Positions 4,298-30,680 of a stretch of DNA of 42,102 nt are shown piece after piece (the first letter of the stretch is position 1; every line of letters begins with the position of its first letter). Under the pieces are notes generated by a model, which saw nothing but the letters and a program-made list of their open reading frames with translations, was not told the origin of the DNA and searched no databases. A program made the position numbers and the translations under genes. Origin of the DNA: a virus (taxonomy: Duplodnaviria > Heunggongvirae > Uroviricota > Caudoviricetes); IMG/VR virus record IMGVR_UViG_3300036790_000204, positions 1 to 42,102 of that record; one strand, given 5' to 3'.

Positions 4298-4434
4298 GCC
4301 GCACCTCGAGCCGCCGCGCGCGCTCGAGCAGCTGCGCGCGGATGAACTCCAGCGACGTCGTAGCCGGCCAGGTGGTATCCCCACCCTGCGCCCCCGGCGT
4401 TGCAGAACAAGTCGAGCAGCCGCGGGCGCCTCAT
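4294..4434 (-). pseudogene. Remnant of a second DNA cytosine methyltransferase
   Basis: MRRPRLLDLFCNAGGAGWGYHLAGYDV is motif I of a C5-MTase; frame then shifts (LEFIRAQ in another frame) and stops after 46 aa. Confidence 0.7.
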
Positions 4435-6143
4435 GCGAGCACGGCCGCAACCGCGTTGCCGAGCCAGTGGGCGACATTAGCGCTCACCGCGTTCCCCGCC
4501 TGCATAGTCTGCTCGCCCTGGTTGCCCGTCACTATGTAGGAGTCGGGGAACCGCTGGGCGCGCAGGTGCTCGCGGGGCTTCAGCATCCGGAACCGGCAGT
4601 CCGCGACGTCCGGGTTATCGGGCTGCACCAGCCCGGCCGACTCGCGAGTTGCCAGCGTGTGCAGCGGCCCGGCGGTCGTCGTCGCGCGCCCGCGCCGGTA
4701 GGGAACCACCAAGGCGTGATGGTCCTGCGCGGTAATCGGGCTGACCGGCTGGTCGACCCGCGAGACATTCCGCTCCGGGGTGAGGTAGCCGCCGTAGTTC
4801 TTCAGCAGGAACGAGTCCGGCACGGTCAGCCCGTGATGCGCACCGGAAGTCGCCACTGTCGACAGAGGCTCGTCAACGCCCTGGGCTACCTGCCTGTTGC
4901 GCAAGACGGCGAAGAACGGCGGCACGGTCAGCCCGTGGTTGCGGCCGGTGGTCATCGTCGCCAGGGCGTCGCCCGCGACCTCGGTGGGGGCGTTCTTCGG
5001 TCCGCGCAGCATCGTGACGAACGGCTGAGTGACAAGCGCGTCGGTGTCACGCGTGACGCGGGTCCGGAACGGCTCGCTGGTGCGAGTCCCCGGCTGGTCG
5101 TGGTTCGCGCCCCCCACCGGGAGCACCATCCCGCCCGATACCGCCAGCGCCTCAGCCGGAGTGCCGGTCCGCGCGTTCAGGGGCCTTTCCACCGGCCATG
5201 CCCGCACATAACCCGAACCGGGCCGCTCGTAGGTGTTTCCGCCAACCGCGACCGTGACCGGCTGGGCGAACATCGTCAGCCCCGCGCGGACGCGCCGGAT
5301 CGTCGCCGGGGCGAGCCCTTCCGGCTTGGCCTTGGTTTTTGGCCGGTCGCCGATCCGCGTCCCGAGGTCGCTCCAGTCGATCGCCGACGCGGCGGGCAGC
5401 ACGAGCGGCTCGGCGGCCGAGTGCCCGCAGGCGGTGTTGCTGCAGCAGTACACGTACTGCTGCCCGTACTTGCCGATCTTTCGTGCGCCCGGCTTTTTCC
5501 ACGCTTGGAACGACTCGACCACGGCCTCGCACTTGAAGCACCACGCCAGCGGCCTGGGCGAGACGTCCGGCAGGGCGATGCCCTTGCGGGTGAACACGAT
5601 GTAGAGCCGGTCGCGCCACTGCGGGGCGTGCGGGTTACCGTCGCCGCCGACGTGCGCCGACGACACGCTGACGAACTGGTGGTTGTAGCCGAGCAGGATC
5701 ATGCCGCCGAGCCACCAGTCGAACAGCTCCCAGTCGGCCGCCTCGGTGACGTTCTCGATGATGACCGCCTTATAGCGGTGCACCTCGGTCGCCCTGATCA
5801 CGTCGTGGAATGTCGCACGGGTCCGCTCGAGGCCTGCCTTCGGCACGTGGCCGGACTCCTCGAGCAGGTCAAGCTGACCGGGTGCCCGTCGCGCGCGCCC
5901 CCCGGCGGGCGAGATCTCTGTGCAGATCGGCGACGCCCACAGAATGTCGGTGCGTGGCAGGCGCCGCATGTCGTAGTTGCTGACGTCCGCGCAAAGGTGC
6001 TCGGCGTCGCGGAAGTTCGCCGAGTGCGTCTCGATCGCGCGTTCCCAGTGGTTGGCGGCGAGTTTCAGCTCGAGGCCGGCCTCGGTCAGCCCGATCGACG
6101 AGCCTCCCGCCCCGCAGAACACGTCGGTATAGGTGAGGCTCAT
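4431..6143 (-). CDS. DNA (cytosine-5) methyltransferase
   Basis: Motif I DVFCGAGG, motif IV WASPIC, motif VI IENV, motif VIII QWRDRLYIV, motifs IX/X REHLRAQRFP..QAGNAVS. Confidence 0.93.
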   Translation of the reverse strand: MSLTYTDVFCGAGGSSIGLTEAGLELKLAANHWERAIETHSANFRDAEHLCADVSNYDMRRLPRTDILWASPICTEISPAGGRARRAPGQLDLLEESGHVPKAGLERTRATFHDVIRATEVHRYKAVIIENVTEAADWELFDWWLGGMILLGYNHQFVSVSSAHVGGDGNPHAPQWRDRLYIVFTRKGIALPDVSPRPLAWCFKCEAVVESFQAWKKPGARKIGKYGQQYVYCCSNTACGHSAAEPLVLPAASAIDWSDLGTRIGDRPKTKAKPEGLAPATIRRVRAGLTMFAQPVTVAVGGNTYERPGSGYVRAWPVERPLNARTGTPAEALAVSGGMVLPVGGANHDQPGTRTSEPFRTRVTRDTDALVTQPFVTMLRGPKNAPTEVAGDALATMTTGRNHGLTVPPFFAVLRNRQVAQGVDEPLSTVATSGAHHGLTVPDSFLLKNYGGYLTPERNVSRVDQPVSPITAQDHHALVVPYRRGRATTTAGPLHTLATRESAGLVQPDNPDVADCRFRMLKPREHLRAQRFPDSYIVTGNQGEQTMQAGNAVSANVAHWLGNAVAAVLA

Positions 6144-6517: not shown

Positions 6518-7548
6518 CGGCCCGGCCTTTCCTGATCGTTTCGGGCCGGGCCGTCCGCAAGCCCCTCAACTTGGGACGGCCCGGCGGCGCGCACATCGGC
6601 AAGGGGAACCTCAGCCCCGTGCGCGCCAGCCCCCGAACCAGGCCCCTCAACCTGGCCGGGGGAGTCAGTGGAATCGGTGCGCTCGTTCAGGTAGGCGCGG
6701 GCGATCTTGAGTCCGGGGTCGTTGTCGCCGCCGGTCGCTTCCGCAACGAACGCGGCCTCAAGCGGGCTGAGCGACTCGTAGTAGGCGGCGCTCTCGTCGA
6801 GCAGGTCCGCGACAGCTAGCGCCACCATCGGGTGCCATGAGGCAATGTGGACCGCGATCGCCTCCGGCATCGGGCCGGCGAAGAAATGCGGGGAATGCCA
6901 GTCCTCTTCTTGGTCGTGCTCGTACACCGCGTGCGTCACGAACGCGTCGCCGGTCGGCTCGTACTGCCCGTCGGCCATCTCGGTGCCGCCGTCGCCGAAC
7001 GGGTACGGGGCACCGGGAACCTCCCGCGGCTCGGGGAACTCCCGCCATTTCGTGTTGGCGACGGTCCCCCACGGGAACCACTGGCCGCGGCCGTCCTCGG
7101 TCAGGCTCATCGCCGCTTCGGCCTGCTCGCGCATCTGCTTGGCCGCCCGCCTCAGCAGGGCGGCGGGGGTCTCGGGCTCGGTCATGGTGTTCTCCGGTAG
7201 GTCGAATAGCGGCTCCATCTGCGCGGCGAGCTCGGCCGCGCGTGTGGCCTGCCTGGTCTGCGCGTGGTGGTCGCGGTCGTAGTGGAGGTGACAGCCCTGG
7301 CACATCGCGCGAAGGTTGTCGGGGTCGCAGTTCTCGGGCGTGTGATCGAGATGCGCGGTTGTCAGCACGACATTGCTGCCGGTCCCGTACGCAGGCTGGC
7401 CGTGGACATTCGGGCAGCGGCCCTCGTGCGTGCCGCGACCGCACTCGCCGAGGCACTCGCATCGCCAGCCGGCGCGCTCCTTGATGGCAAGCGAGATCGC
7501 CGGCCAATCCGGCGGGTACCTGCGCTTCTCGGACTCGCGGATCGGCAT
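6514..7548 (-). CDS. HNH-like zinc protein fused in frame to a second phage protein
   Basis: MPIRESEKRRYPPDW..RAGWRCEC..VLTTAHLDHTPENC..NLRAMCQGCHLHYD; TGATG overlap at 7548; internal GGAG RBS and ATG at 7185. Confidence 0.7.
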   Translation of the reverse strand: MPIRESEKRRYPPDWPAISLAIKERAGWRCECLGECGRGTHEGRCPNVHGQPAYGTGSNVVLTTAHLDHTPENCDPDNLRAMCQGCHLHYDRDHHAQTRQATRAAELAAQMEPLFDLPENTMTEPETPAALLRRAAKQMREQAEAAMSLTEDGRGQWFPWGTVANTKWREFPEPREVPGAPYPFGDGGTEMADGQYEPTGDAFVTHAVYEHDQEEDWHSPHFFAGPMPEAIAVHIASWHPMVALAVADLLDESAAYYESLSPLEAAFVAEATGGDNDPGLKIARAYLNERTDSTDSPGQVEGPGSGAGAHGAEVPLADVRAAGPSQVEGLADGPARNDQERPGR

Positions 7549-10624: not shown

Positions 10625-11346
10625 TGGGTGCTCTCCTTGGGCTCCCCGGCGGTGAGCGCGAGCGCCCCGCCGAGCACCGACGCGCGCAGCTCCGGGTCGG
10701 CTTGCAATGCGGCCATGACCGCCGCGCGCCGCTGCTCGGACTCGGCGCCGATGAACGCGAACGCCCCGGTGGGCTTGTTCTGCGTCTCGGTGACGAGTTG
10801 CAGCCGCTCGCCGGTGTCGGGGTCGAACAGCCACCCCTTCGGGGCGTGCTCGGCTACCTGCTGCGCTTCCTTCAGGTACGCCGTGAGCGCAGAGGGCCGC
10901 ACCCGCGACGACATGAGATCGGGCAGTTCCGCGGCGATCAGCGCCAGCGCCCCCGGGTCGTTCAGCGCGCCCGGCGCGACGTGGACGCGGATCAGGTCGG
11001 GGCGCTTCTCGAGCAGCAGGTCGATCAGCCGCTCGTCATGCTCCGCGCCGGGGATCGCCACCGGCTCGAGGGCATCCGGGTTCCGCTCGGCCACCCACTC
11101 ATGAAGCCCGGTCTCGTCGATCTCGGTGTTCTTCGCGCCGGCTTTGATCGACAGGTGCGCGATAACCTGGCCGCCCAATTCGACGGGTACCTGCAGCGCG
11201 CCCCGCGATGAGGTGACCCCGGTCTCGGACACCATCGTGTGGAATTCCGCCTCGGCGTCTTTGCGGGCGGCCTCGTACTCGGCGGCGACGCCGAGGGCGA
11301 TCGCCTCAAGGGCGGTGACGCGCAGCGCGGCGCTAGGCGTCGTCAT
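10621..11346 (-). CDS. Hypothetical phage recombination-region protein
   Basis: 241-aa ORF with GC-biased codons, coupled between annealase and exonuclease. Confidence 0.75.
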   Translation of the reverse strand: MTTPSAALRVTALEAIALGVAAEYEAARKDAEAEFHTMVSETGVTSSRGALQVPVELGGQVIAHLSIKAGAKNTEIDETGLHEWVAERNPDALEPVAIPGAEHDERLIDLLLEKRPDLIRVHVAPGALNDPGALALIAAELPDLMSSRVRPSALTAYLKEAQQVAEHAPKGWLFDPDTGERLQLVTETQNKPTGAFAFIGAESEQRRAAVMAALQADPELRASVLGGALALTAGEPKESTQ

Positions 11347-12328
11347 TCGTGGCTCCTTCCAGCGCCGTTGCGCGCTGCTTGACCAGCGCGATCAGTTCGG
11401 TGCCCGCGGGCGGCGTGATGACATTCGATGAGACCGCCCGCAGGACCTCGACCTTCATCGGCCGCATGCAGTCAGCGCCGGCGGCGGCGAGCCGGGCCTT
11501 AAACGACTCGGCCCAGTCGGGCTGAGCCGCGTCCCCTGGACCATCCGGGTCGGGCTGCCGCGACTCGCTGTCGATCTCGGCCGCGCGGGCGTCGAGCATC
11601 CCTGCTATCCGGGCGACGTCGGCCGGGTTCAGTTCCCCGCCGTCCCGCAGCTTCTCCATGTCGGTGCGGATGCCGGCCAGCGCGGCGCTGCTGTCCGCCG
11701 CGCCGGTGCGCTTCCGCCAGCCGCGCATGTCCGCGTAGGGGATGCCCTCGTCGGGGATTTCCGCGCCGCCTCCGTCCTCCTGCTCGGGGTTGACGTCGGG
11801 CACGTCGTCGGTGTCAGCCGGCTTATCGGCTTGGGGGCGCACCAGCGTCCAGCGCACCACCGGCTCGAGCGACCCCTTGTTGTAGAGGGACAGGCCGAAC
11901 TGGTCGCCGAAGTTGATCGCGCACCGGCGCAGCGCGTACGTCTCGCTGTTTGTCACCGCGTTGCCGTGGGACTCGCCGAAAGACGGGTGGGAGTTTTCCC
12001 CGATGTGGGTCGCCTCCTGCACCGACAGCGGCGTCCCGTCCGGCGCTTTCACCGTCAGGCGCATCCGGGTCCGGTAGACGACGTTCCAGCCGTTGCCGCC
12101 GGTGCTCAACTTGACCTGCGCCTCGCGGATGAGGGTCTGGTCAACGACCTCAGCAGACCACCGGCCGAAGCCAAACACACGGGTCAGCTCGGCCCGGATG
12201 TCGTAGCCCTCCATGTGGGCTTGGCCGTTGTCATTGCGGCGCGTCACCCGCTTGCGGTTGACGGGCCTAAGCAGGAGATCAACCTGCGCCGGGCTCAGGT
12301 ACGAAGGATCAGCCGCAGTCTCGGTCAT
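11333..12328 (-). CDS. Rad52/Rad22-family (Sak-like) single-strand annealing protein
   Basis: HMEGYDIRAELTRVFGFGRWS..NAVTNSETYALRRCAINFGDQFGLSLY. Confidence 0.85.
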   Translation of the reverse strand: MTETAADPSYLSPAQVDLLLRPVNRKRVTRRNDNGQAHMEGYDIRAELTRVFGFGRWSAEVVDQTLIREAQVKLSTGGNGWNVVYRTRMRLTVKAPDGTPLSVQEATHIGENSHPSFGESHGNAVTNSETYALRRCAINFGDQFGLSLYNKGSLEPVVRWTLVRPQADKPADTDDVPDVNPEQEDGGGAEIPDEGIPYADMRGWRKRTGAADSSAALAGIRTDMEKLRDGGELNPADVARIAGMLDARAAEIDSESRQPDPDGPGDAAQPDWAESFKARLAAAGADCMRPMKVEVLRAVSSNVITPPAGTELIALVKQRATALEGATNDDA

Positions 12329-19273: not shown

Positions 19274-19795
19274 TCATCCTGTGCTCGGGTCGGGGGCGCC
19301 TTTCGCTGCCGCCGACACCGCGGTCACCCGCAGCGGGCCGAGTGCCGCCCGCGCCGCGATCGCCGCCACGGACAGCGCCGCGTCGGGCTCTGCGGATTCC
19401 ACTGTCACCCGGACCACGATGCTGCCGTGCACCCGCTCAGTTCTCGCGTCGCTGACCGCCGGGTGCCGCTTGGCCGCCGCCGGCAGGGCCGCGTCAACCC
19501 TGGCGGCCTCCTTGTCGGCCTCGCCGCCCTCCGGCAGCCGGGCGAAGAAGTCAGCGAGCCACAGACGCCGGGCCGGAACAGTCATGCCGCGGCGTGGCAC
19601 CGCCTCGAGGAGCCCCTCGCCGACGAGCTGCCGGAAAGCCTGCTGGACAGTGTGCTGGCTGACCCCCGTCTCGACGGCCAGCTCGGGGCCGGACGGGAAC
19701 CGCGCGCCGAGGATGTCGAAGTCGCCTGCCAGGATGCGGACGCGTAGCCAGTCCGCTACCTGCTCGTAGCCCGAGGCGCTTGTGGTGACTCTCAA
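19274..19795 (-). CDS. GntR-family regulator (KorA/KorSA-like)
   Basis: YEQVADWLRVRI..FPSGPELAVETGVSQHTVQQAFRQLVGEGLL; TTG at 19795 has a GGGAG RBS, ATG 19879 is an alternative. Confidence 0.85.
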   Translation of the reverse strand: MRVTTSASGYEQVADWLRVRILAGDFDILGARFPSGPELAVETGVSQHTVQQAFRQLVGEGLLEAVPRRGMTVPARRLWLADFFARLPEGGEADKEAARVDAALPAAAKRHPAVSDARTERVHGSIVVRVTVESAEPDAALSVAAIAARAALGPLRVTAVSAAAKGAPDPSTG

Positions 19796-19847
19796 CCGGC
19801 TCCCTTTCCCGCGCGCACCGCTGTTCCGGAACATCGTAGAGCCAGCG

Positions 19848-19937
19848 GCCTTAGAGGCTCTCTTTGAAGGGCTTGACATCGGCGTTTCCTCGGTTAGCCT
19901 AAGACTGCAAGATAAGCCTTAGCCACTAAGGCTAACC
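19848..19937 (+). promoter_or_regulatory. Rightward sigma70-type promoter overlapped by inverted-repeat operators
   Basis: TTGACA 19873-19878, 16-bp spacer, TAGCCT 19895-19900; GGTTAGCCT/AGGCTAACC inverted pair; GCCTTAG at 19848 and 19916, CTAAGGC at 19926. Confidence 0.7.
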
Positions 19938-22358: not shown

Positions 22359-22588
22359 GCGCCCGCCTGCTCGCCGTCGCCCTGATCGCGGCCGCGTTCC
22401 TGCTCGGGCCGCATTTCGTCGCGGCGCTCGCCCTGTTCGCGTTCGCCGCCGTGACGCTCCTGTTCGTCCACATGGCCGCCCTGCTCACGGTCCTGACCAT
22501 CGGGACCACGGTCGGGCTGCTCTTGCTCATCGCCGGATCACTTCGGCGATCCGGGTTCCTGCTCGTCTCCAGGAGGCTCGCATGGTAA
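22355..22588 (+). CDS. Small multi-pass membrane protein (Spd-like position)
   Basis: Almost entirely hydrophobic; directly upstream of the translocase. Confidence 0.68.
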
Positions 22589-25026
22589 ACCGCGACCGGG
22601 GTCGCGACCACGACCGCGACCGCGACCACGAGAACGTCGTCCCGATCCGGCCGGAGGACGACGACGACCTGCAGGTCATCGCCCCGGCCGACGACGACGA
22701 CGAGAGCGGGCCCATTAAGCTCGGCGGGGCAATCGAGCCGGCGCCCAAGCCGGCGCGCGACGAGCAGGCCGACGTGCCGCGCCGCGCCGAGATCATCCCC
22801 GCAGCGTTCAGCCGCGCCCAGTGGAAGCAGACCCTTACGGATTGGGCGCACGAAACCGGGTTCCGCGTCGCATTCCACGGCGTTCGCATCCCTTTCAAGT
22901 ACGTGCCCGGCTCTCTCTTTTACACCGTCCGCGGGGGCACCCGCCTCGGCCGCAGCTGGGGCACGTGGGTGTCGGCGCCGACTCTGAAACTCGCCGAGTC
23001 CGCCGCTGTGGTTAAAGGCAACGCCGGCCACGCGCAGATCCTGCAGGCTCACACGGAGGGCCGCAGAACCCGCAAGATGCGCTGGCAGATCACCGGCGGC
23101 GTGGCGCTCGCGGCCGGCGTCGCGGCGGCGGCGATCGCCGGCTGGACCCCGTGGGAGGTGCAGGACACCCTCGCCGCCGGTGCAGCCGGCGTAGTCGCCT
23201 ACCACGGGCGCCCGGTCGACGGGCCGCTCATCCCGCGCGCGGTGCTGCCGCCCGCCTACCAGGTGCCGACACCGGAGCTGATCCAGAAGGCGCTCGGGAC
23301 GGCCATACCCGCCATCGGGAAATACCTCGAGAGGAAAGGCCCCCTCGACAGGAAGAACACTCTCGACTGGGTGTCCGACGTCCACCGCGACGGCCCCGGG
23401 TGGGCGGTCGAGCTCGACCTGCCCGAGGGCGTGACGGCAAAGCAGGTCATCGCCAAGCGCCCCGAGCTGTCGTCGCTGCTGCGCCGGCCGCTGTCGGCCG
23501 TGTGGCCCGAAGGCGTTCCCGGCGAGCACGAGGGGCGCCTGTACCTGTGGATCGGCCGCCACGACATGTCGAAGATGAAGGCGCCGCCGTACCCGTTCCT
23601 CAAGGGCGGCACGTTCGACTACTTCCAGCCGGGCCCGTTCGCTTTCACCCCCCGCGGCGTCCCGGTCCTCGAGAAGCTGTTCGGCAAGAACTGGCTGATC
23701 GGCGGGGCACCCGGCAACGGGAAGACATCCGCGGTGCGGGTGCTCGCGTGCAACGCCGCGCTCGACCCGACCTGCGAGATCTGGGTTCACGAGCTGCTCG
23801 GCAAGGGCGACCTTGACCCGTTCGGCCTGGTCGCCCACCGGTACTGCTCGGGACTCGACCGGGAGTCGCTCACCTACGCGGCGCAGTCGCTGGAACTGCT
23901 GGTCAAAGAAGTCGACCGGCGCACCGGCATCCTCAAGAAAATCCCGCTGGTCGAGCGCCCCGACGGGTCCATCACCCGGGAGATCGCCGCCAAGTACGGG
24001 CTTAACCCGCTGGCGGCGATCTTCGACGAGATCCACAACGTGTTCCTCGACGAGGAACTCGGCCCCAAGGCCAAAAAGCACATCAGTCACCTCATCAGGT
24101 CGGCCCGGGCACTCGGCATCACGATCATCGCCGCGACCCAGCGACCCGATAAAGACTCGATCCCGACCAACATGTCGGGCATCGTCACGACCCGGTTCTG
24201 CCTGAAGGTGCCGGACTGGCTGAGCAACGACATGATCCTCGGCACCGGCAGCAACAACGCCGGCTTCTCGTCGGTCGCGTTCAGGCAGGAGACCGACGCC
24301 GGCCTCGGCTGGCTCAAGGGCACCGCCGACCCGATGCCCGTCAAGACCTACAACCTCAAGCTCACCCACACCCACAAGATCTGCGTCCGCGCCCGCGCGC
24401 TGCGGGAAGCGGCCGGAACGCTGTCGGGGTACGCGCTCGGCGAGGACGACAGCACCAGGTCGCTGCTCGACGACACGCTCGGAGTGTTCGCCCCGGCCGA
24501 AGCCTTCCTGTACCGGGAGACGATCGCCACCCGCCTCGCGCAGCGCTATCCCGGCACCTACGCCGGCCTCACAGCCGACGCGCTGTCATCCGACGTGCGG
24601 GCGCTCACCGGCCGCGGCATGGACGACGGCCGCGAACCCGGCGGGAACACCCTCAAGGGCATCAAGCGCACCACGATTCAGGACGCGATCGACAATGGCC
24701 CGGCGACCGCCGAACCCCCGGACGAGCCGGCCGCCGACGACCAGACAGCACCCGAGTCGGCACCGGCGGACGACCCCGCTGCGATGGGCCCGCTCGAGCA
24801 GCTGCTCTACGCGGCCGAGCTGGTCATCATCCCGCAGCACGGCTCGACTCAGATGCTCGGCCGCAAAATGCGCGTCGACCGCGCCCGCGCCGGCGAGCTG
24901 ATGGACGAGCTCGAGCACTGCGGCGTCGTCGGACCCGATAAGGGAGCGAAGGCGCGCGAGGTGCGCAAAAAGCCGGCCGAGCTCAAGCAGGTTCTCGCCG
25001 AGATCCGGGAGACCGTCGATGCCTAG
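22582..25026 (+). CDS. traB: FtsK/SpoIIIE-family TraB-like conjugative DNA translocase
   Basis: N-terminal hydrophobic segment; Walker [10 protein letters not shown], Walker B IFDEIH, ATQRP motif; C-terminal winged-helix and FtsK-gamma-like domain. Confidence 0.88.
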
Positions 25027-25072
25027 GACAACGGGATGCCCCACGGGAACGGATGTGGTTTGGGCGCTGAGG

Positions 25073-25210
25073 CCGCAACAATCTGTTGCGCCAGCGCAAC
25101 ACGCGCTGACCTGCGAAAACACGAATCCGCGCAACAAACCGCGTCCTCGGCTAGGGGTGCGCAACACACTCCGCAACACGCTGACCTGCGGAAACACGGC
25201 CTGCGCAACA
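25073..25210 (+). repeat. Putative clt (cis-acting locus of transfer) octamer array
   Basis: GCGCAACA at 25094, 25129, 25159, 25203; CCGCAACA at 25073, 25171; inverted TGTTGCG at 25084; GCTGACCTGCGRAAACACG-like motif at about 25105 and 25180. Confidence 0.75.
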
Positions 25211-25283
25211 ATCCGGCTCGACGGGGCCCCGATCAGGGCCGAAACCCGCGCCCTAGGGCCATGCACCGGAAGAGGGGGGCTTT

Positions 25284-26507
25284 TTGAAGGCGCGGCTAAC
25301 GCTGTGGCACTGCGGGCGCTGCGGGAAGGCACGCGGACGGCACCACCTGTGCTCGGGCGGCCGGAAGGGACGCGACCGGATCAAGCTCCGGATGGCGTTC
25401 ACCTGCCCGTCATGCGGCGCGAGCACGCCCAACCCGCTGACGCACCGCTGCGTCAAAAAGTCGGACTTCAAGCGCCGGAAAGCCGCAGCGAAGCGGCACG
25501 ACCAGGCCGAGGCCCGGAAGCGGAGACGGCGCGCGGCGGCCGCCCGGAAACGGGCGCGGCTCAGAGAGCGGAAGCGCGCGCGGGCGGAGCGCCGCAGGCT
25601 GCAGCGCGCCGCCACGGCGGCCGCCCGGAAGCAGTCGGCGCGCGCCCGCTCCCACAACGCGAACAGGCACGAGCCGGCCGACTGCCGCGACGAGAACTGC
25701 ACAAGCAAACCCTGCGCCTGGTATCGCGCCGGGAGGACGGACGGCCTGGTGATCGGCCGGGCCGAGGGCTACGGCGACGGGTTCACCGACGGGTTCGCCG
25801 AGTGCCTGTCGCAACGTTTAGGGGGCTGCCATGGGCGACGTGATCCTGAAGGCGATCCCGGTGCTATTCGTCGTCGGCGTGCTCTACCTGGCGCTGCTGC
25901 TGATCCACCCGATGCACGAGTGCCCGCGGTGCGGCGGCGCGCGGGTGATCAGGAACGGCCGGAACGTCAAAGCCTGCAAGAAGTGCAAGGCGACCGGCCG
26001 CGCGATCCGGTTCGGCGCACCGTTCGCACACAAGCTCGCCCGCGAGCATGTGTGGCCGTGGATCCGCGCCCGCATGGAGGACACGGCCGAGCGCAGGCAG
26101 GAGGGGCCGCGATGACGCTTAAGGGCAGTTTCCAAGGGTCATTCCAGCTCAAGCAGGCACGCGCCCCGGTTCTGCGCCTGCTGCTGCCGGCGCTAGCCGC
26201 CGCGCTGGCCTGCTGGCTGGCCATGGCGCTCGCGTGGCTGCTCGCGGTCATCGTCGGCGCGTTCGGGCTGGCGATCGTCGGGGGCAGCCTGTGGCTGCGC
26301 CATTGGTCGCGCCGCGCCGAGGCCGGATTCGCGGCCAGTCAGCTCGCCAACCCCGTGCGACCCGCGATCACAGCTTCGGCGCAGCCCGCGCCGATGATCG
26401 TCAACCACTACCACGGGCCCGTCACCGTCCACGTGGGACCGGGGTCGGACCCATCGGCGTTCGGGGCGGTCCGGCCCCTCGCCATCACCACCGAAACAGA
26501 GGAGTAG
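25284..26507 (+). CDS. Zinc-finger/basic protein whose frame runs without a stop into the 26112 membrane gene
   Basis: CGRC..C, CPSC..C, CRDENC..C motifs and Arg-rich helix; likely functional part about 25284-25830. Confidence 0.55.
   Translation: MKARLTLWHCGRCGKARGRHHLCSGGRKGRDRIKLRMAFTCPSCGASTPNPLTHRCVKKSDFKRRKAAAKRHDQAEARKRRRRAAAARKRARLRERKRARAERRRLQRAATAAARKQSARARSHNANRHEPADCRDENCTSKPCAWYRAGRTDGLVIGRAEGYGDGFTDGFAECLSQRLGGCHGRRDPEGDPGAIRRRRALPGAAADPPDARVPAVRRRAGDQERPERQSLQEVQGDRPRDPVRRTVRTQARPRACVAVDPRPHGGHGRAQAGGAAMTLKGSFQGSFQLKQARAPVLRLLLPALAAALACWLAMALAWLLAVIVGAFGLAIVGGSLWLRHWSRRAEAGFAASQLANPVRPAITASAQPAPMIVNHYHGPVTVHVGPGSDPSAFGAVRPLAITTETEE
25831..26115 (+). CDS. Membrane-anchored DnaJ-type zinc-finger protein
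   Basis: TM helix then CPRCGG..CKKCKATGRAIRFGA; AGGGGG RBS. Confidence 0.75.
   Translation: MGDVILKAIPVLFVVGVLYLALLLIHPMHECPRCGGARVIRNGRNVKACKKCKATGRAIRFGAPFAHKLAREHVWPWIRARMEDTAERRQEGPR
26112..26507 (+). CDS. Membrane protein (Spd-like)
   Basis: GGAGG RBS, ATGA overlap, long hydrophobic region, NHYHGP tail. Confidence 0.68.
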   Translation: MTLKGSFQGSFQLKQARAPVLRLLLPALAAALACWLAMALAWLLAVIVGAFGLAIVGGSLWLRHWSRRAEAGFAASQLANPVRPAITASAQPAPMIVNHYHGPVTVHVGPGSDPSAFGAVRPLAITTETEE

Positions 26508-27560: not shown

Positions 27561-28763
27561 TTGACCGACTACCGGGAGGAACGGAGGCGCGACCGGGCCG
27601 CCGCCGCCCAGATCAGGCGCGACGACGAGGCCGCTGGCGCGAAGCTGCGCGCGACCGAGGCGAAGGCGAAGCTCGAGCGGAAAGCGACCGCCGGCAGGGC
27701 CCGCGCCGCACGCTGGCAGGCGCTCGGCCGGTGGGTCGCCGACCGTTCGGCCGACCTGCTGCTCGCGCCGGTCATCGTCGTCGGCGCGGTCCTGGCGTGG
27801 ACCGGGATGGCCGCCTACGGCGAGGAAGAGTACGGCACGCCCGGCCTGCTGCTGCCGGCGCTGTCGGAAGGCGGCATGTGGGCGTTCGCCATGGCCACCA
27901 CCCTGACCGCCCGCAGGCACCCGGACCGGCCGCTGTGGGCGTTCCGCCTCGGAACCATCGTGTTCGCCGGATACGGGGCGGCGCTCAACTTCCTGCACGG
28001 CGACTCGGCCGGCGGACTGGCCGAGGGCATCGCGATGGCGCTCGTGTCGGTGGCGGGGGTGACCGCGCACCAGCTCGTCACGGCAGGGCCGAAGCTCAGC
28101 CGGCAGGACCGCGAGCGGCGCCGGCTGCGGCGGGCTGCGGAGCGACGCGAGCGCACGGCGATGCGGGCCGCGCTGCGGGACTCGCGGGTCGTCATCGGGG
28201 CTGACGGAAGCGCGCGGATCGTCGTCGCCGAGGGCGTCGCCACACTCGACCGCGGATGGCTCCGGACCCGGCTCGAGATCGACGCCGGGAACCCGGCCGG
28301 GGGCGCCGCGGAACCAGCCACCGAGGCAGCTCCGGAGGGATCGCCGGAAGCTCCGGGGCGACCCTCAATCGCGCCGCCGCATCCCCTCACCGTCGCCCTC
28401 ACCTCAAGCCCGCACGGCACCCTCAGAATGACCTTCGCCCGGCCCGCAGCGATGCCCTCAATCGGGCCCGCGCAGCGGGTGCCGGAACCGCAGGTCAGCG
28501 CCCCCGAAACGCCCTCACCGGAACCGGCGCCGGCGCCCCCGAAAACAGCTTGCGAGACACCCTCGCCGCGCCCTCGCGCGACGGCGCCGAGGGGCCGCGC
28601 GAAATCCCGCGCCAAGGTGGACGCGCTCATCGTCGCCGGCGGCATGACCAACGCGGCGATAGCCCAGCAGGCGGGAGTCTCCGTGGCTACCGTCGAGCGT
28701 CGCAAGGCAGCGCTCCGCGAGGCAGCCGAGGTGACCAACCTCGCCGACCGCCGCCGCGCGTAA
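27561..28763 (+). CDS. SpdB/DUF2637-like membrane protein with C-terminal HTH
   Basis: Four TM segments (AWTGMAAYG..LLLPALSEG..GAALNFLH..AHQLV), Pro-rich linker, MTNAAIAQQAGVSVATVERRK HTH. Confidence 0.72.
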   Translation: MTDYREERRRDRAAAAQIRRDDEAAGAKLRATEAKAKLERKATAGRARAARWQALGRWVADRSADLLLAPVIVVGAVLAWTGMAAYGEEEYGTPGLLLPALSEGGMWAFAMATTLTARRHPDRPLWAFRLGTIVFAGYGAALNFLHGDSAGGLAEGIAMALVSVAGVTAHQLVTAGPKLSRQDRERRRLRRAAERRERTAMRAALRDSRVVIGADGSARIVVAEGVATLDRGWLRTRLEIDAGNPAGGAAEPATEAAPEGSPEAPGRPSIAPPHPLTVALTSSPHGTLRMTFARPAAMPSIGPAQRVPEPQVSAPETPSPEPAPAPPKTACETPSPRPRATAPRGRAKSRAKVDALIVAGGMTNAAIAQQAGVSVATVERRKAALREAAEVTNLADRRRA

Positions 28764-29847: not shown

Positions 29848-30536
29848 GCGTTGCCCGCGCATGCGGAAGCCAGCAAGGCGCTGCTCATCGCCGCAGCGGC
29901 GGCGGGGCGGCCGGTGTCCGCGAAGCCGCATGCCAGAGCCTCGAGCATGGCGAGCGCGACATGGGGGTCGAGGTCGTGAAGCTCGATGTCGACTTTCGTG
30001 CCCGAGTTGGTGTCGGTGACGTCGGCGTGATGCTTCCATCCGCTGCTAGGGAGCCGGACGCGGATGCTGCCGGGCGTCCTGCCGAATCCGCGCCGTTCGG
30101 AGCCGGGGACGGCGGCCGTGATCTGCGCGGTGATGCGCTCCCGGTCGGCGGCCGCCAGTTTCTCCGCCGTGACGTCGGCGACGGCCTGCTTGAGCAGCGT
30201 CTCGTACCCGGGTAGCAGTCTCCTGCGCAGGTCGGCCGCCGCTTCGCGCGGGTCGCGGCGGAGCGCGATCGTCGCCTCGCATCGTTCGCCGCGCCTCAGC
30301 CGCCAGCTTGGGGGGAACGCGCCGGTGACGCGGACGCGCCCTTCGGCGACGAAGCCGGGGGCGGTGCTGAGGCTGAGGCGGCGGCCGTCGTGGTGCTCTG
30401 CGAAGACCATGGTCGAGGACGGGCCGGGCGAGTACCGCCATCCGTCGCCGAATGCGGCGGCGATCCCGGCGGTGAGGCGGCGTAGCTGGGCGGCGGTGTC
30501 GTATGCGTCGAACTGGGCCAGGCTGATGTTGCGCAT
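29844..30536 (-). CDS. Hypothetical protein
   Basis: GC-biased codons; coupled to the downstream HTH gene. Confidence 0.7.
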   Translation of the reverse strand: MRNISLAQFDAYDTAAQLRRLTAGIAAAFGDGWRYSPGPSSTMVFAEHHDGRRLSLSTAPGFVAEGRVRVTGAFPPSWRLRRGERCEATIALRRDPREAAADLRRRLLPGYETLLKQAVADVTAEKLAAADRERITAQITAAVPGSERRGFGRTPGSIRVRLPSSGWKHHADVTDTNSGTKVDIELHDLDPHVALAMLEALACGFADTGRPAAAAAMSSALLASACAGNA

Positions 30537-30680
30537 GGGCTGGCGGTCCCCCCCGTAGTGTTGAGTGTTTACAGGGTCAAAGTTATGGACCGCGCCAACA
30601 ACTGTCAACTTAGACGCGCAACACTCCCGAGAGGCACCAGGTCACCACCACAGCGACGCAAACCCCGCACCCGACGCATC

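Follow-up and report, generated by a model that had tools for sequence, protein, structure and literature searches.

The question raised by this locus is what function is served by a cluster of short repeats lying directly 3' of the traB gene of a tailed phage. The window, that is, the whole stretch of DNA analyzed, is 42,102 nt long and belongs to a contig of 106,102 bp that is listed as a virus record. The ends of the contig overlap by 127 bp, and it therefore looks like a complete circular assembly, of approximately 105,975 bp if circular, of a temperate tailed phage. Phage genes were found for the large terminase, portal, head protease, major head protein, a 1608-aa tape measure and minor tail proteins. 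Loci of the clt type and recognition words for TraB are already established, and a conjugative plasmid-phage has a precedent in pZL12. From comparisons at the sequence level, the array 3' of traB is predicted to be the clt (TraB docking site) of this phage with SCGCAACA as its word, an assignment that we regard as probable. The genes and domains needed for the argument were as follows:

4431-6143, minus strand: C5 DNA methylase
11333-12328, minus strand: Rad52-like protein
19274..19879, minus strand: GntR-family regulator (Pfam GntR, E 2e-12), divergent from the tra operon, in the Kor/TraR position
22582..25026, plus strand: traB, 814 aa, membrane-anchored FtsK/SpoIIIE-type dsDNA translocase
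24463..24696, plus strand: winged helix 1 of TraB, aa 628-705 (AlphaFold2), proposed SCGCAACA reader
24790..25020, plus strand: winged helix 2 of TraB, FtsK-gamma-like, aa 737-813 (Pfam FtsK_gamma, Foldseek)
25250..25259: palindrome GCCCTAGGGC, approximately 25 nt ahead of the start of the next gene
25284..25811, plus strand: next gene, encoding a Cys-rich, very basic protein and heading a spd-like operon
90321-91970, minus strand: large serine recombinase

The array is situated in the 257-bp gap (25027-25283) between traB, whose stop codon is the TAG at 25024-25026, and the TTG start codon at 25284. This gap was deduced to be non-coding from its third-position GC. Its repeats were arranged as follows, starting from the traB side:

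25073..25101: proximal triplet, consisting of CCGCAACA on the plus strand (25073-80), GCGCAACA on the minus strand (25084-91) and GCGCAACA on the plus strand (25094-101)
25105..25123, plus strand: Box 1, GCTGACCTGCGAAAACACG, with the core CTGACCTGCG at 25106-25115
25129..25178, plus strand: three direct octamers, GCGCAACA at 25129-36 and 25159-66 and CCGCAACA at 25171-78
25180..25198, plus strand: Box 2, GCTGACCTGCGGAAACACG, with the core at 25181-25190
25203..25210, plus strand: distal direct octamer, GCGCAACA

The sequence-only reading of this DNA had counted six octamers in the same orientation, four GCGCAACA and two CCGCAACA, and exact matches to SCGCAACA were indeed present on the plus strand at 25073 (C), 25094 (G), 25129 (G), 25159 (G), 25171 (C) and 25203 (G). 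It had also placed the cluster within 140 bp, and this agrees with the extent of 25073-25210 and with the first octamer beginning 47 nt past the traB stop codon. Two copies of a second motif ending in AAACACG had been noted, and these correspond to the two boxes, for which the motif GCTGACCTGCG(A/G)AAACACG was derived. The supposed inverted partial copy required correction, as it is a complete GCGCAACA on the minus strand. Together with the direct copy at 25094-25101, this inverted copy (25084-25091) forms the palindrome TGTTGCGC-ca-GCGCAACA, and an opening palindrome made of the local word was also observed in the related loci L001, L002, L003, L005 and L012. The spacings of the direct octamers (21, 35, 30, 12 and 32 nt) were only roughly helical multiples.

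The local enrichment of the octamer, which had been proposed as a check, was demonstrated at several scales. SCGCAACA occurred 14 times in the window, compared to 4.2 +/- 2.0 times in shuffled sequences, and none of 100 shuffles reached 14. The whole contig contained 17 matches, of which 7 were inside the 138 bp of the array. In an unbiased scan, no heptamer of the contig clustered more strongly than CGCAACA, which has 22 copies, 7 of them within a single span of 150 bp; the corresponding maxima in 20 Markov-random contigs were 4 to 6. The second-best word cluster was an array of five GAACCCTT copies, one of them inverted as AAGGGTTC, in approximately 75 bp at 1826-1900, adjoining TTCGCG/CGCGAA palindromes. 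This is a candidate iteron or operator array.

The gamma domain of FtsK, a hexameric dsDNA pump, is a winged helix that reads the oriented 8-bp KOPS, and KOPS are spread genome-wide with strand polarity. The phage system resembles FtsK/KOPS in the proposed winged-helix reading of 8-bp words by a dsDNA pump, and the phage TraB itself carries a gamma-like domain. Strand polarity had been suggested as a further check, and here the expectation failed, as a count over the 106-kb contig gave 3 copies on the plus strand and 7 on the minus strand among the 10 outside the array. Unlike KOPS, SCGCAACA is therefore clustered at one site, and many polarized copies over the replicon were not found in this contig. 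Two of the outlying copies, both GCGCAACA, were located 90 bp apart in inverted orientation at 30527-30534 (minus) and 30616-30623 (plus). The divergent intergenic region that they enclose, ahead of the terminase genes, is richer in AT, and the two copies may be fortuitous or may constitute a secondary TraB site. The contig also contained two other perfect CTGACCTGCG boxes, at 28489-28498 (minus) and 48536-48545 (plus); approximately 0.5 perfect copies were expected in the whole contig. The former lies inside the gene at 27561-28763, which occupies the SpdB/DUF2637 position.

The assignment of traB itself was supported by the following data. The translation contained a Walker A motif (GGAPGNGKT), a Walker B motif (FDEIH), the motif ATQRP and a hydrophobic segment at approximately aa 168-192. 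Pfam returned FtsK_gamma (E 5e-12) and a weak FtsK_SpoIIIE match, the protein matched the FtsK motor in the PDB, and tblastn gave 30.7% identity to the TraB of pSVH1 over aa 274-614 (E 3e-26). The AlphaFold2 model of aa 585-814 (mean pLDDT 84) contained two winged helices joined by an acidic, Pro-rich linker. Winged helix 1 was modeled with pLDDT above 90 and the topology a1-b1-a2-a3-b2-b3, with a recognition helix at 665-676 and a wing at 681-695. Winged helix 2 matched the FtsK gamma structures 2ve9, 2ve8 and 2j5p with TM-scores of 0.71-0.87 over 59-65 residues; the Foldseek E-values for the two-domain model were weak (0.01-0.1), and only the TM-scores of the gamma matches were used.

A search with the single TraB protein as query gave no relatives in genome or viral contigs. 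Relatives were found by an alignment-based scan, with loci sampled from metagenomes and from Streptosporangiales genomes, including Spirillospora and Actinomadura. The 245 TraB homologues comprised forms of approximately 800 aa with the gamma domain and forms of approximately 680 aa without it, and winged helix 1 was found in both. The gene order was conserved, with the GntR gene divergent from WhiB/DUF6919, followed by TraB, a gap of 180-240 bp, a Cys-rich gene and DUF2637. In the phage, the neighbors of traB are the divergent GntR gene, a DUF6919 protein and an mIHF-like H2TH_5 protein, with a DUF2637 (SpdB-type) protein added in relatives; the GntR synteny was retained in L001-L007.

The same layout after traB was observed in about 75 related loci, each with its own word of 6-8 bp. 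Within approximately 200 bp past traB, almost every locus had 3 to 10 copies of its word, some direct and some inverted, with one or two CTGACCTGCG boxes set among them. The words included CGCAACA (the window, L005, L019 and L096), CGCGACA, CGATACA, CCGCTAC, CGTTACC, GGGAACAC and others. The earlier description of the word as new thus holds relative to the tested plasmids but not within the family, other members of which already use CGCAACA. Where the word was clear (37 loci), the post-traB gaps contained 205 copies in 9.8 kb versus 127 copies in 297 kb elsewhere, a 49-fold enrichment, and most words were absent from the remainder of their own locus, the GntR promoter included. Mapped onto a TraB-core tree of 35 taxa, the word changed at least 17 times. 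The box was more constant. When up to one mismatch was allowed, 57 of 77 distinct loci had it no more than 250 bp from the traB stop codon; 76 of 90 boxes were on the traB strand, and perfect CTGACCTGCG 10-mers were 69-fold denser in the post-traB gaps than in the flanks. Some relatives also carried a copy of the word approximately 30 nt inside the 3' end of traB.

Which of the two winged helices would read the word was deduced from the family forms. The members of approximately 680 aa are without the FtsK-gamma-like domain and have kept the array, so that this domain is dispensable for the array architecture and winged helix 1 is the candidate reader. This is consistent with a comparison of locus pairs at equal core identity, in which the winged-helix identity was higher for pairs with the same word than for pairs with different words (0.73 versus 0.61, 0.57 versus 0.46, 0.52 versus 0.45, and 0.47 versus 0.40). 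Two sister pairs proved particularly informative. The TraB cores of L090 and L096 are 94% identical and their winged helices 53%, with the words CGCTACA and CGCAACA, respectively; the cores of L001 and L003 are 90% identical and their winged helices 57%, and their words also differ. The DNA identity of the sister pairs falls from approximately 90% to 25-55% over the last 400 bp or so of traB and the first 150 bp or so of the gap. In both pairs the replaced block looks like a natural swap of a specificity module. In addition, the wing peptide ANRKG was found only in four distinct loci with the word CGCGACA, belonging to three lineages of the tree. It corresponds to the start of wing strand b3 in the model, where the window has TLKGIK.

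The link between domain and word is not strict. Winged helix 1 evolves fast in any case, and since the domain and the array are adjacent, one recombination tract could swap both without any functional link. Exceptions were also observed: the window and L007 share CGCAACA with an identity of only 38% in winged helix 1, and L002 and L004 share CGATACA with an identity of 47%. Taken over the family, the data suggest that the word covaries with winged helix 1, and SCGCAACA is most likely the recognition word of the phage TraB, read by the winged helix at 628-705.

The locus was then compared to known transfer loci. In PMC3583192 and PMC4447253, the TraB of pSVH1 is described as binding repeated 8-bp motifs via helix alpha-3 of its C-terminal winged helix, and the clt regions of other plasmids as consisting of direct and inverted repeats. 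The pSVH1 sequence past traB was found to contain four direct copies and one inverted copy of GACCCGGA together with degenerate copies, followed by CTGACCTGCGCAAACACGG 146 nt past the stop codon. The two loci therefore share an array directly 3' of traB in a gap of approximately 230-260 bp, with four to six direct 8-bp repeats and a single inverted one ahead of CTGACCTGCG(N)AAACACG, which in turn precedes the next operon, and their TraB motors are homologous (E 3e-26). They differ in the word, which is GACCCGGA in pSVH1 and SCGCAACA in the phage; in the number of boxes, which is one and two, respectively; in the extra FtsK-gamma-like domain of the phage TraB; and in the downstream gene, that of pSVH1 being unrelated to the phage 25284 gene. 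Furthermore, pSVH1 is a 12.6-kb rolling-circle plasmid, and the phage is a 106-kb tailed phage with a clt predicted from sequence.

The arrangement of local word array, inverted copy and CTGACCTGCG box approximately 146 nt past the stop codon was common to pSVH1, pSG5 and pFP11. A local word and a box at +111 to +146 past the stop codon were present in pSG5, pFP11, pXL100 and five other plasmids, including those of S. decoyicus and S. rubiginosohelvolus. In pIJ101, whose clt is mapped to the gap between korA and korB, CTGACCTGCG was found in that gap at 6886, with a GCAAC arm on one side and a GTTGC arm on the other. PMC3583192 and PMC4447253 give G(C/A)AAC and an essential inverted repeat for the pIJ101 clt, and four TGACACC with a TraA footprint for pWTY27. 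Both resemble the phage locus in their short words, in direct and inverted order, adjoining tra, and both differ from it in the words themselves; the pIJ101 clt also differs in not being 3' of tra. The likeness to pWTY27 extends to the relatives of the phage TraB that carry a word copy inside the 3' end of traB.

The pJV1 clt, as summarized in PMC3583192, has nine 9-bp direct repeats CCGCACA[C/G][C/G] and imperfect inverted repeats. Its CCGCACA is nearly the same as CCGCAACA, and direct and inverted repeats are mixed in both loci. The words are one base apart in length, and the resemblance may reflect chance or convergence. The Streptomyces plasmid-phage pZL12 is described, in PMC4487206, PMC7157519 and PMC3583192, as forming virions and as having a tra gene and conjugative transfer. 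Compared by description, it has in common with the phage an actinophage genome that includes a tra gene; the phage differs from it in having a serine integrase, and no ParAB was seen.

The prediction of a clt is thus supported by its position adjoining traB, by a dense cluster of short direct repeats with an inverted copy, and by the same plan in pSVH1 and approximately 75 relatives, and the earlier proposal of a transfer locus appears well founded. In the mechanism proposed, TraB would read the SCGCAACA array through winged helix 1, and ATP hydrolysis would pump the double-stranded element through a membrane pore into the neighboring hypha or compartment, with the downstream Spd-like membrane proteins aiding its spread. 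Six of the seven octamers are oriented as traB and, by analogy with FtsK and KOPS, may set the direction of loading. The two CTGACCTGCG.AAACACG boxes would form a second, family-wide component, probably read by a conserved host factor or acting as a transcript-end signal rather than being bound by the variable TraB domain.

The strongest alternative is that octamers or boxes, or both together, act as operators or promoter elements for the Cys-rich/spd-like operon and are recognized by some regulator different from TraB, for example the 25284 product or the GntR protein. The sequence-only reading had named this as a finding that would speak against a clt. In its favor, the distance from the array to the next start codon is approximately 75 nt, with a conserved CCCTAGGG palindrome in that interval; zinc-ribbon-like CxxC units and a strongly basic segment could enable the 25284 product to bind nucleic acid; and some chromosomal box copies form operator-like palindromes. 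Against this, array and box are retained beside traB even when an unrelated gene follows (pSVH1 and pSG5) or one of another type (L058 and L060). There is also no SCGCAACA in the GntR promoter region of the phage, the word being likewise absent from the GntR/tra promoter region in most loci, and no sigma-70-type promoter was found in 24700-25600. The equivalent pSVH1 repeats are TraB sites according to PMC3583192. A role as operators in place of a clt was accordingly deemed unlikely; since the array is just upstream of the next operon, it may have a regulatory role alongside its predicted role as clt.

The palindrome ahead of that operon was conserved in its own right. The CCCTAGGG palindrome was kept at the equivalent of 25250-25259 in L001, L002, L003, L005, L009, L011, L012 and L052. 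In the long-form clade it lies 15-40 nt ahead of the start of the post-clt gene, and the short-form loci have only C-TAG. In the phage, GCCCTAGGGC may be a promoter -10 element or an operator. The 25284 product has two CxxC..HxC units, a KR-rich stretch and a C-terminal CxDxxCxxxxCxxYR, and it was 45-58% identical by tblastn to proteins of 176-180 aa from L001, L002 and L005; no Pfam family was matched. The homologues end at 176-180 aa, and the window frame has no stop codon there, with the homology fading near 25811. The frame is open to 26507, overlapping further genes including 25831-26115, a small zinc-ribbon membrane protein conserved in relatives. The long frame may reflect a lost stop codon or may simply be an open GC-rich frame.

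A maintenance site, i.e., replication-origin iterons or a partition centromere of an extrachromosomal prophage, was considered very unlikely. Short direct and inverted repeats are typical of iterons and centromeres, and pZL12 is a plasmid-phage. In contrast, no Rep or ParA/ParB gene adjoins the array, the phage has the large serine recombinase at 90321-91970, and the chromosomal family members in Spirillospora and Actinomadura also have the array. The array follows traB in all relatives and plasmids examined, and in pSVH1, pSG5 and pIJ101 the plan sits after traB with rep and the origins elsewhere. The five GAACCCTT copies at 1826-1900 are also a better iteron candidate.

That the array encodes a structured RNA (an attenuator or processing element) with stems covarying between elements was judged highly improbable: inverted word copies do flank boxes in many loci, with all copies changing together, and chromosomal boxes often close a short hairpin, but only one of the seven window copies is inverted, leaving four or five identical octamers without a partner, the fold has z = -1.26 with 22 of 200 shuffles folding equally well, no Rfam match at E up to 1 and no terminator-like site were found, and only 21 of 76 clt-region boxes close a hairpin.

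The second motif of the array proved not to be private to the element. Its two copies are real, as had been noted, but the box is a class-wide actinomycete motif. In an even draw of 61 genomes from the class Actinomycetes, the 15-mer CTGACCTGCGNAAAC gave 101 exact copies in 42 genomes, compared to 0 for the control read backwards. Without the unpublished genomes G011, G034, G036 and G040, which supplied no locus and support nothing else reported here, there were 92 matches in 38 of 57 genomes. Five Streptosporangiales genomes contained 16 copies, again with 0 for the backwards control. The box is therefore not specific to clt regions and is weaker proof of clt homology than first seemed. A TraB homologue lay within 8 kb of only 1 of 15 chromosomal box sites, and the use of chromosomal boxes as markers of TraB elements was dropped on this ground.

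The chromosomal sites themselves were of several kinds. A tRNA was found within 200 nt of 16 of 77 box sites, its 3' end usually 3-13 nt away and in either orientation; two sites precede tyrosine-integrase genes, and six, in six genomes, are 110-290 nt upstream of carD. Several sites are palindromic or make a 10-bp hairpin whose loop reads GAAA, and a short stem closing an NAAA loop was present at 51 of 77 chromosomal sites versus 8 of 77 in the control. Neither an Rfam family nor a description in the literature searched was found for the motif. An identity with the sps palindrome bound by SpdA2 (PMC4170104) was rejected, sps being a different 12-bp motif inside spdA. Readings of the box by eye as a sigma-70 -35 element (CTGACC), as an ECF -35 element (GAAAC followed downstream by CGTC) or as a site of the GlnR a/b type (gTnAc-n6-GaAAc) were also rejected, as the spacings varied from site to site.

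Overall, the box is read as a putative host-level signal that is embedded at very high frequency in clt regions. We tentatively hypothesize, as a possibility that is rather doubtful at present, that CTGACCTGCG(N)AAAC, as a signal common to the class Actinomycetes and so far undescribed, is recognized by a conserved host factor and has been taken into clt as an obligatory second component by TraB elements, from Streptomyces plasmids to this phage. If the hypothesis is true, TraB and the 8-bp words would not suffice for transfer, which would also depend, at clt, on either a host protein or a signal marking transcript ends. TraB transfer is usually described as a one-protein system, and the presence of CTGACCTGCG within the clt regions that were mapped by experiment in pSVH1, pSG5 and pIJ101 points to a possible missing component.

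The present comparison adds a map of the words across the family, the observation that the TraB winged helix and the array diverge jointly in sister elements, and the box as a feature common to these loci. The comparative set constitutes a natural specificity table of local word against TraB winged helix, and since the near-isogenic pairs L090/L096 and L001/L003 differ mainly in the winged-helix/array module, a TraB recognition code becomes testable. If the clt prediction is true, the phage possesses all that is required to pass its 106-kb genome from hypha to hypha as naked dsDNA, and not only in capsids. Such a second route of transmission would bear on host range, on escape from receptor-based resistance and on gene flow among soil actinomycetes.

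One pair of chromosomal box sites, L141 and L142 (G002:C14, at 78 kb and 170 kb), was distinctive. Two 3' parts of tRNA-Lys are located there 92 kb apart, each followed by the box and approximately 100 nt of sequence that is about 85% similar between them. This pair looks like tandem or nested integrative elements with an att-proximal arm that includes the box.
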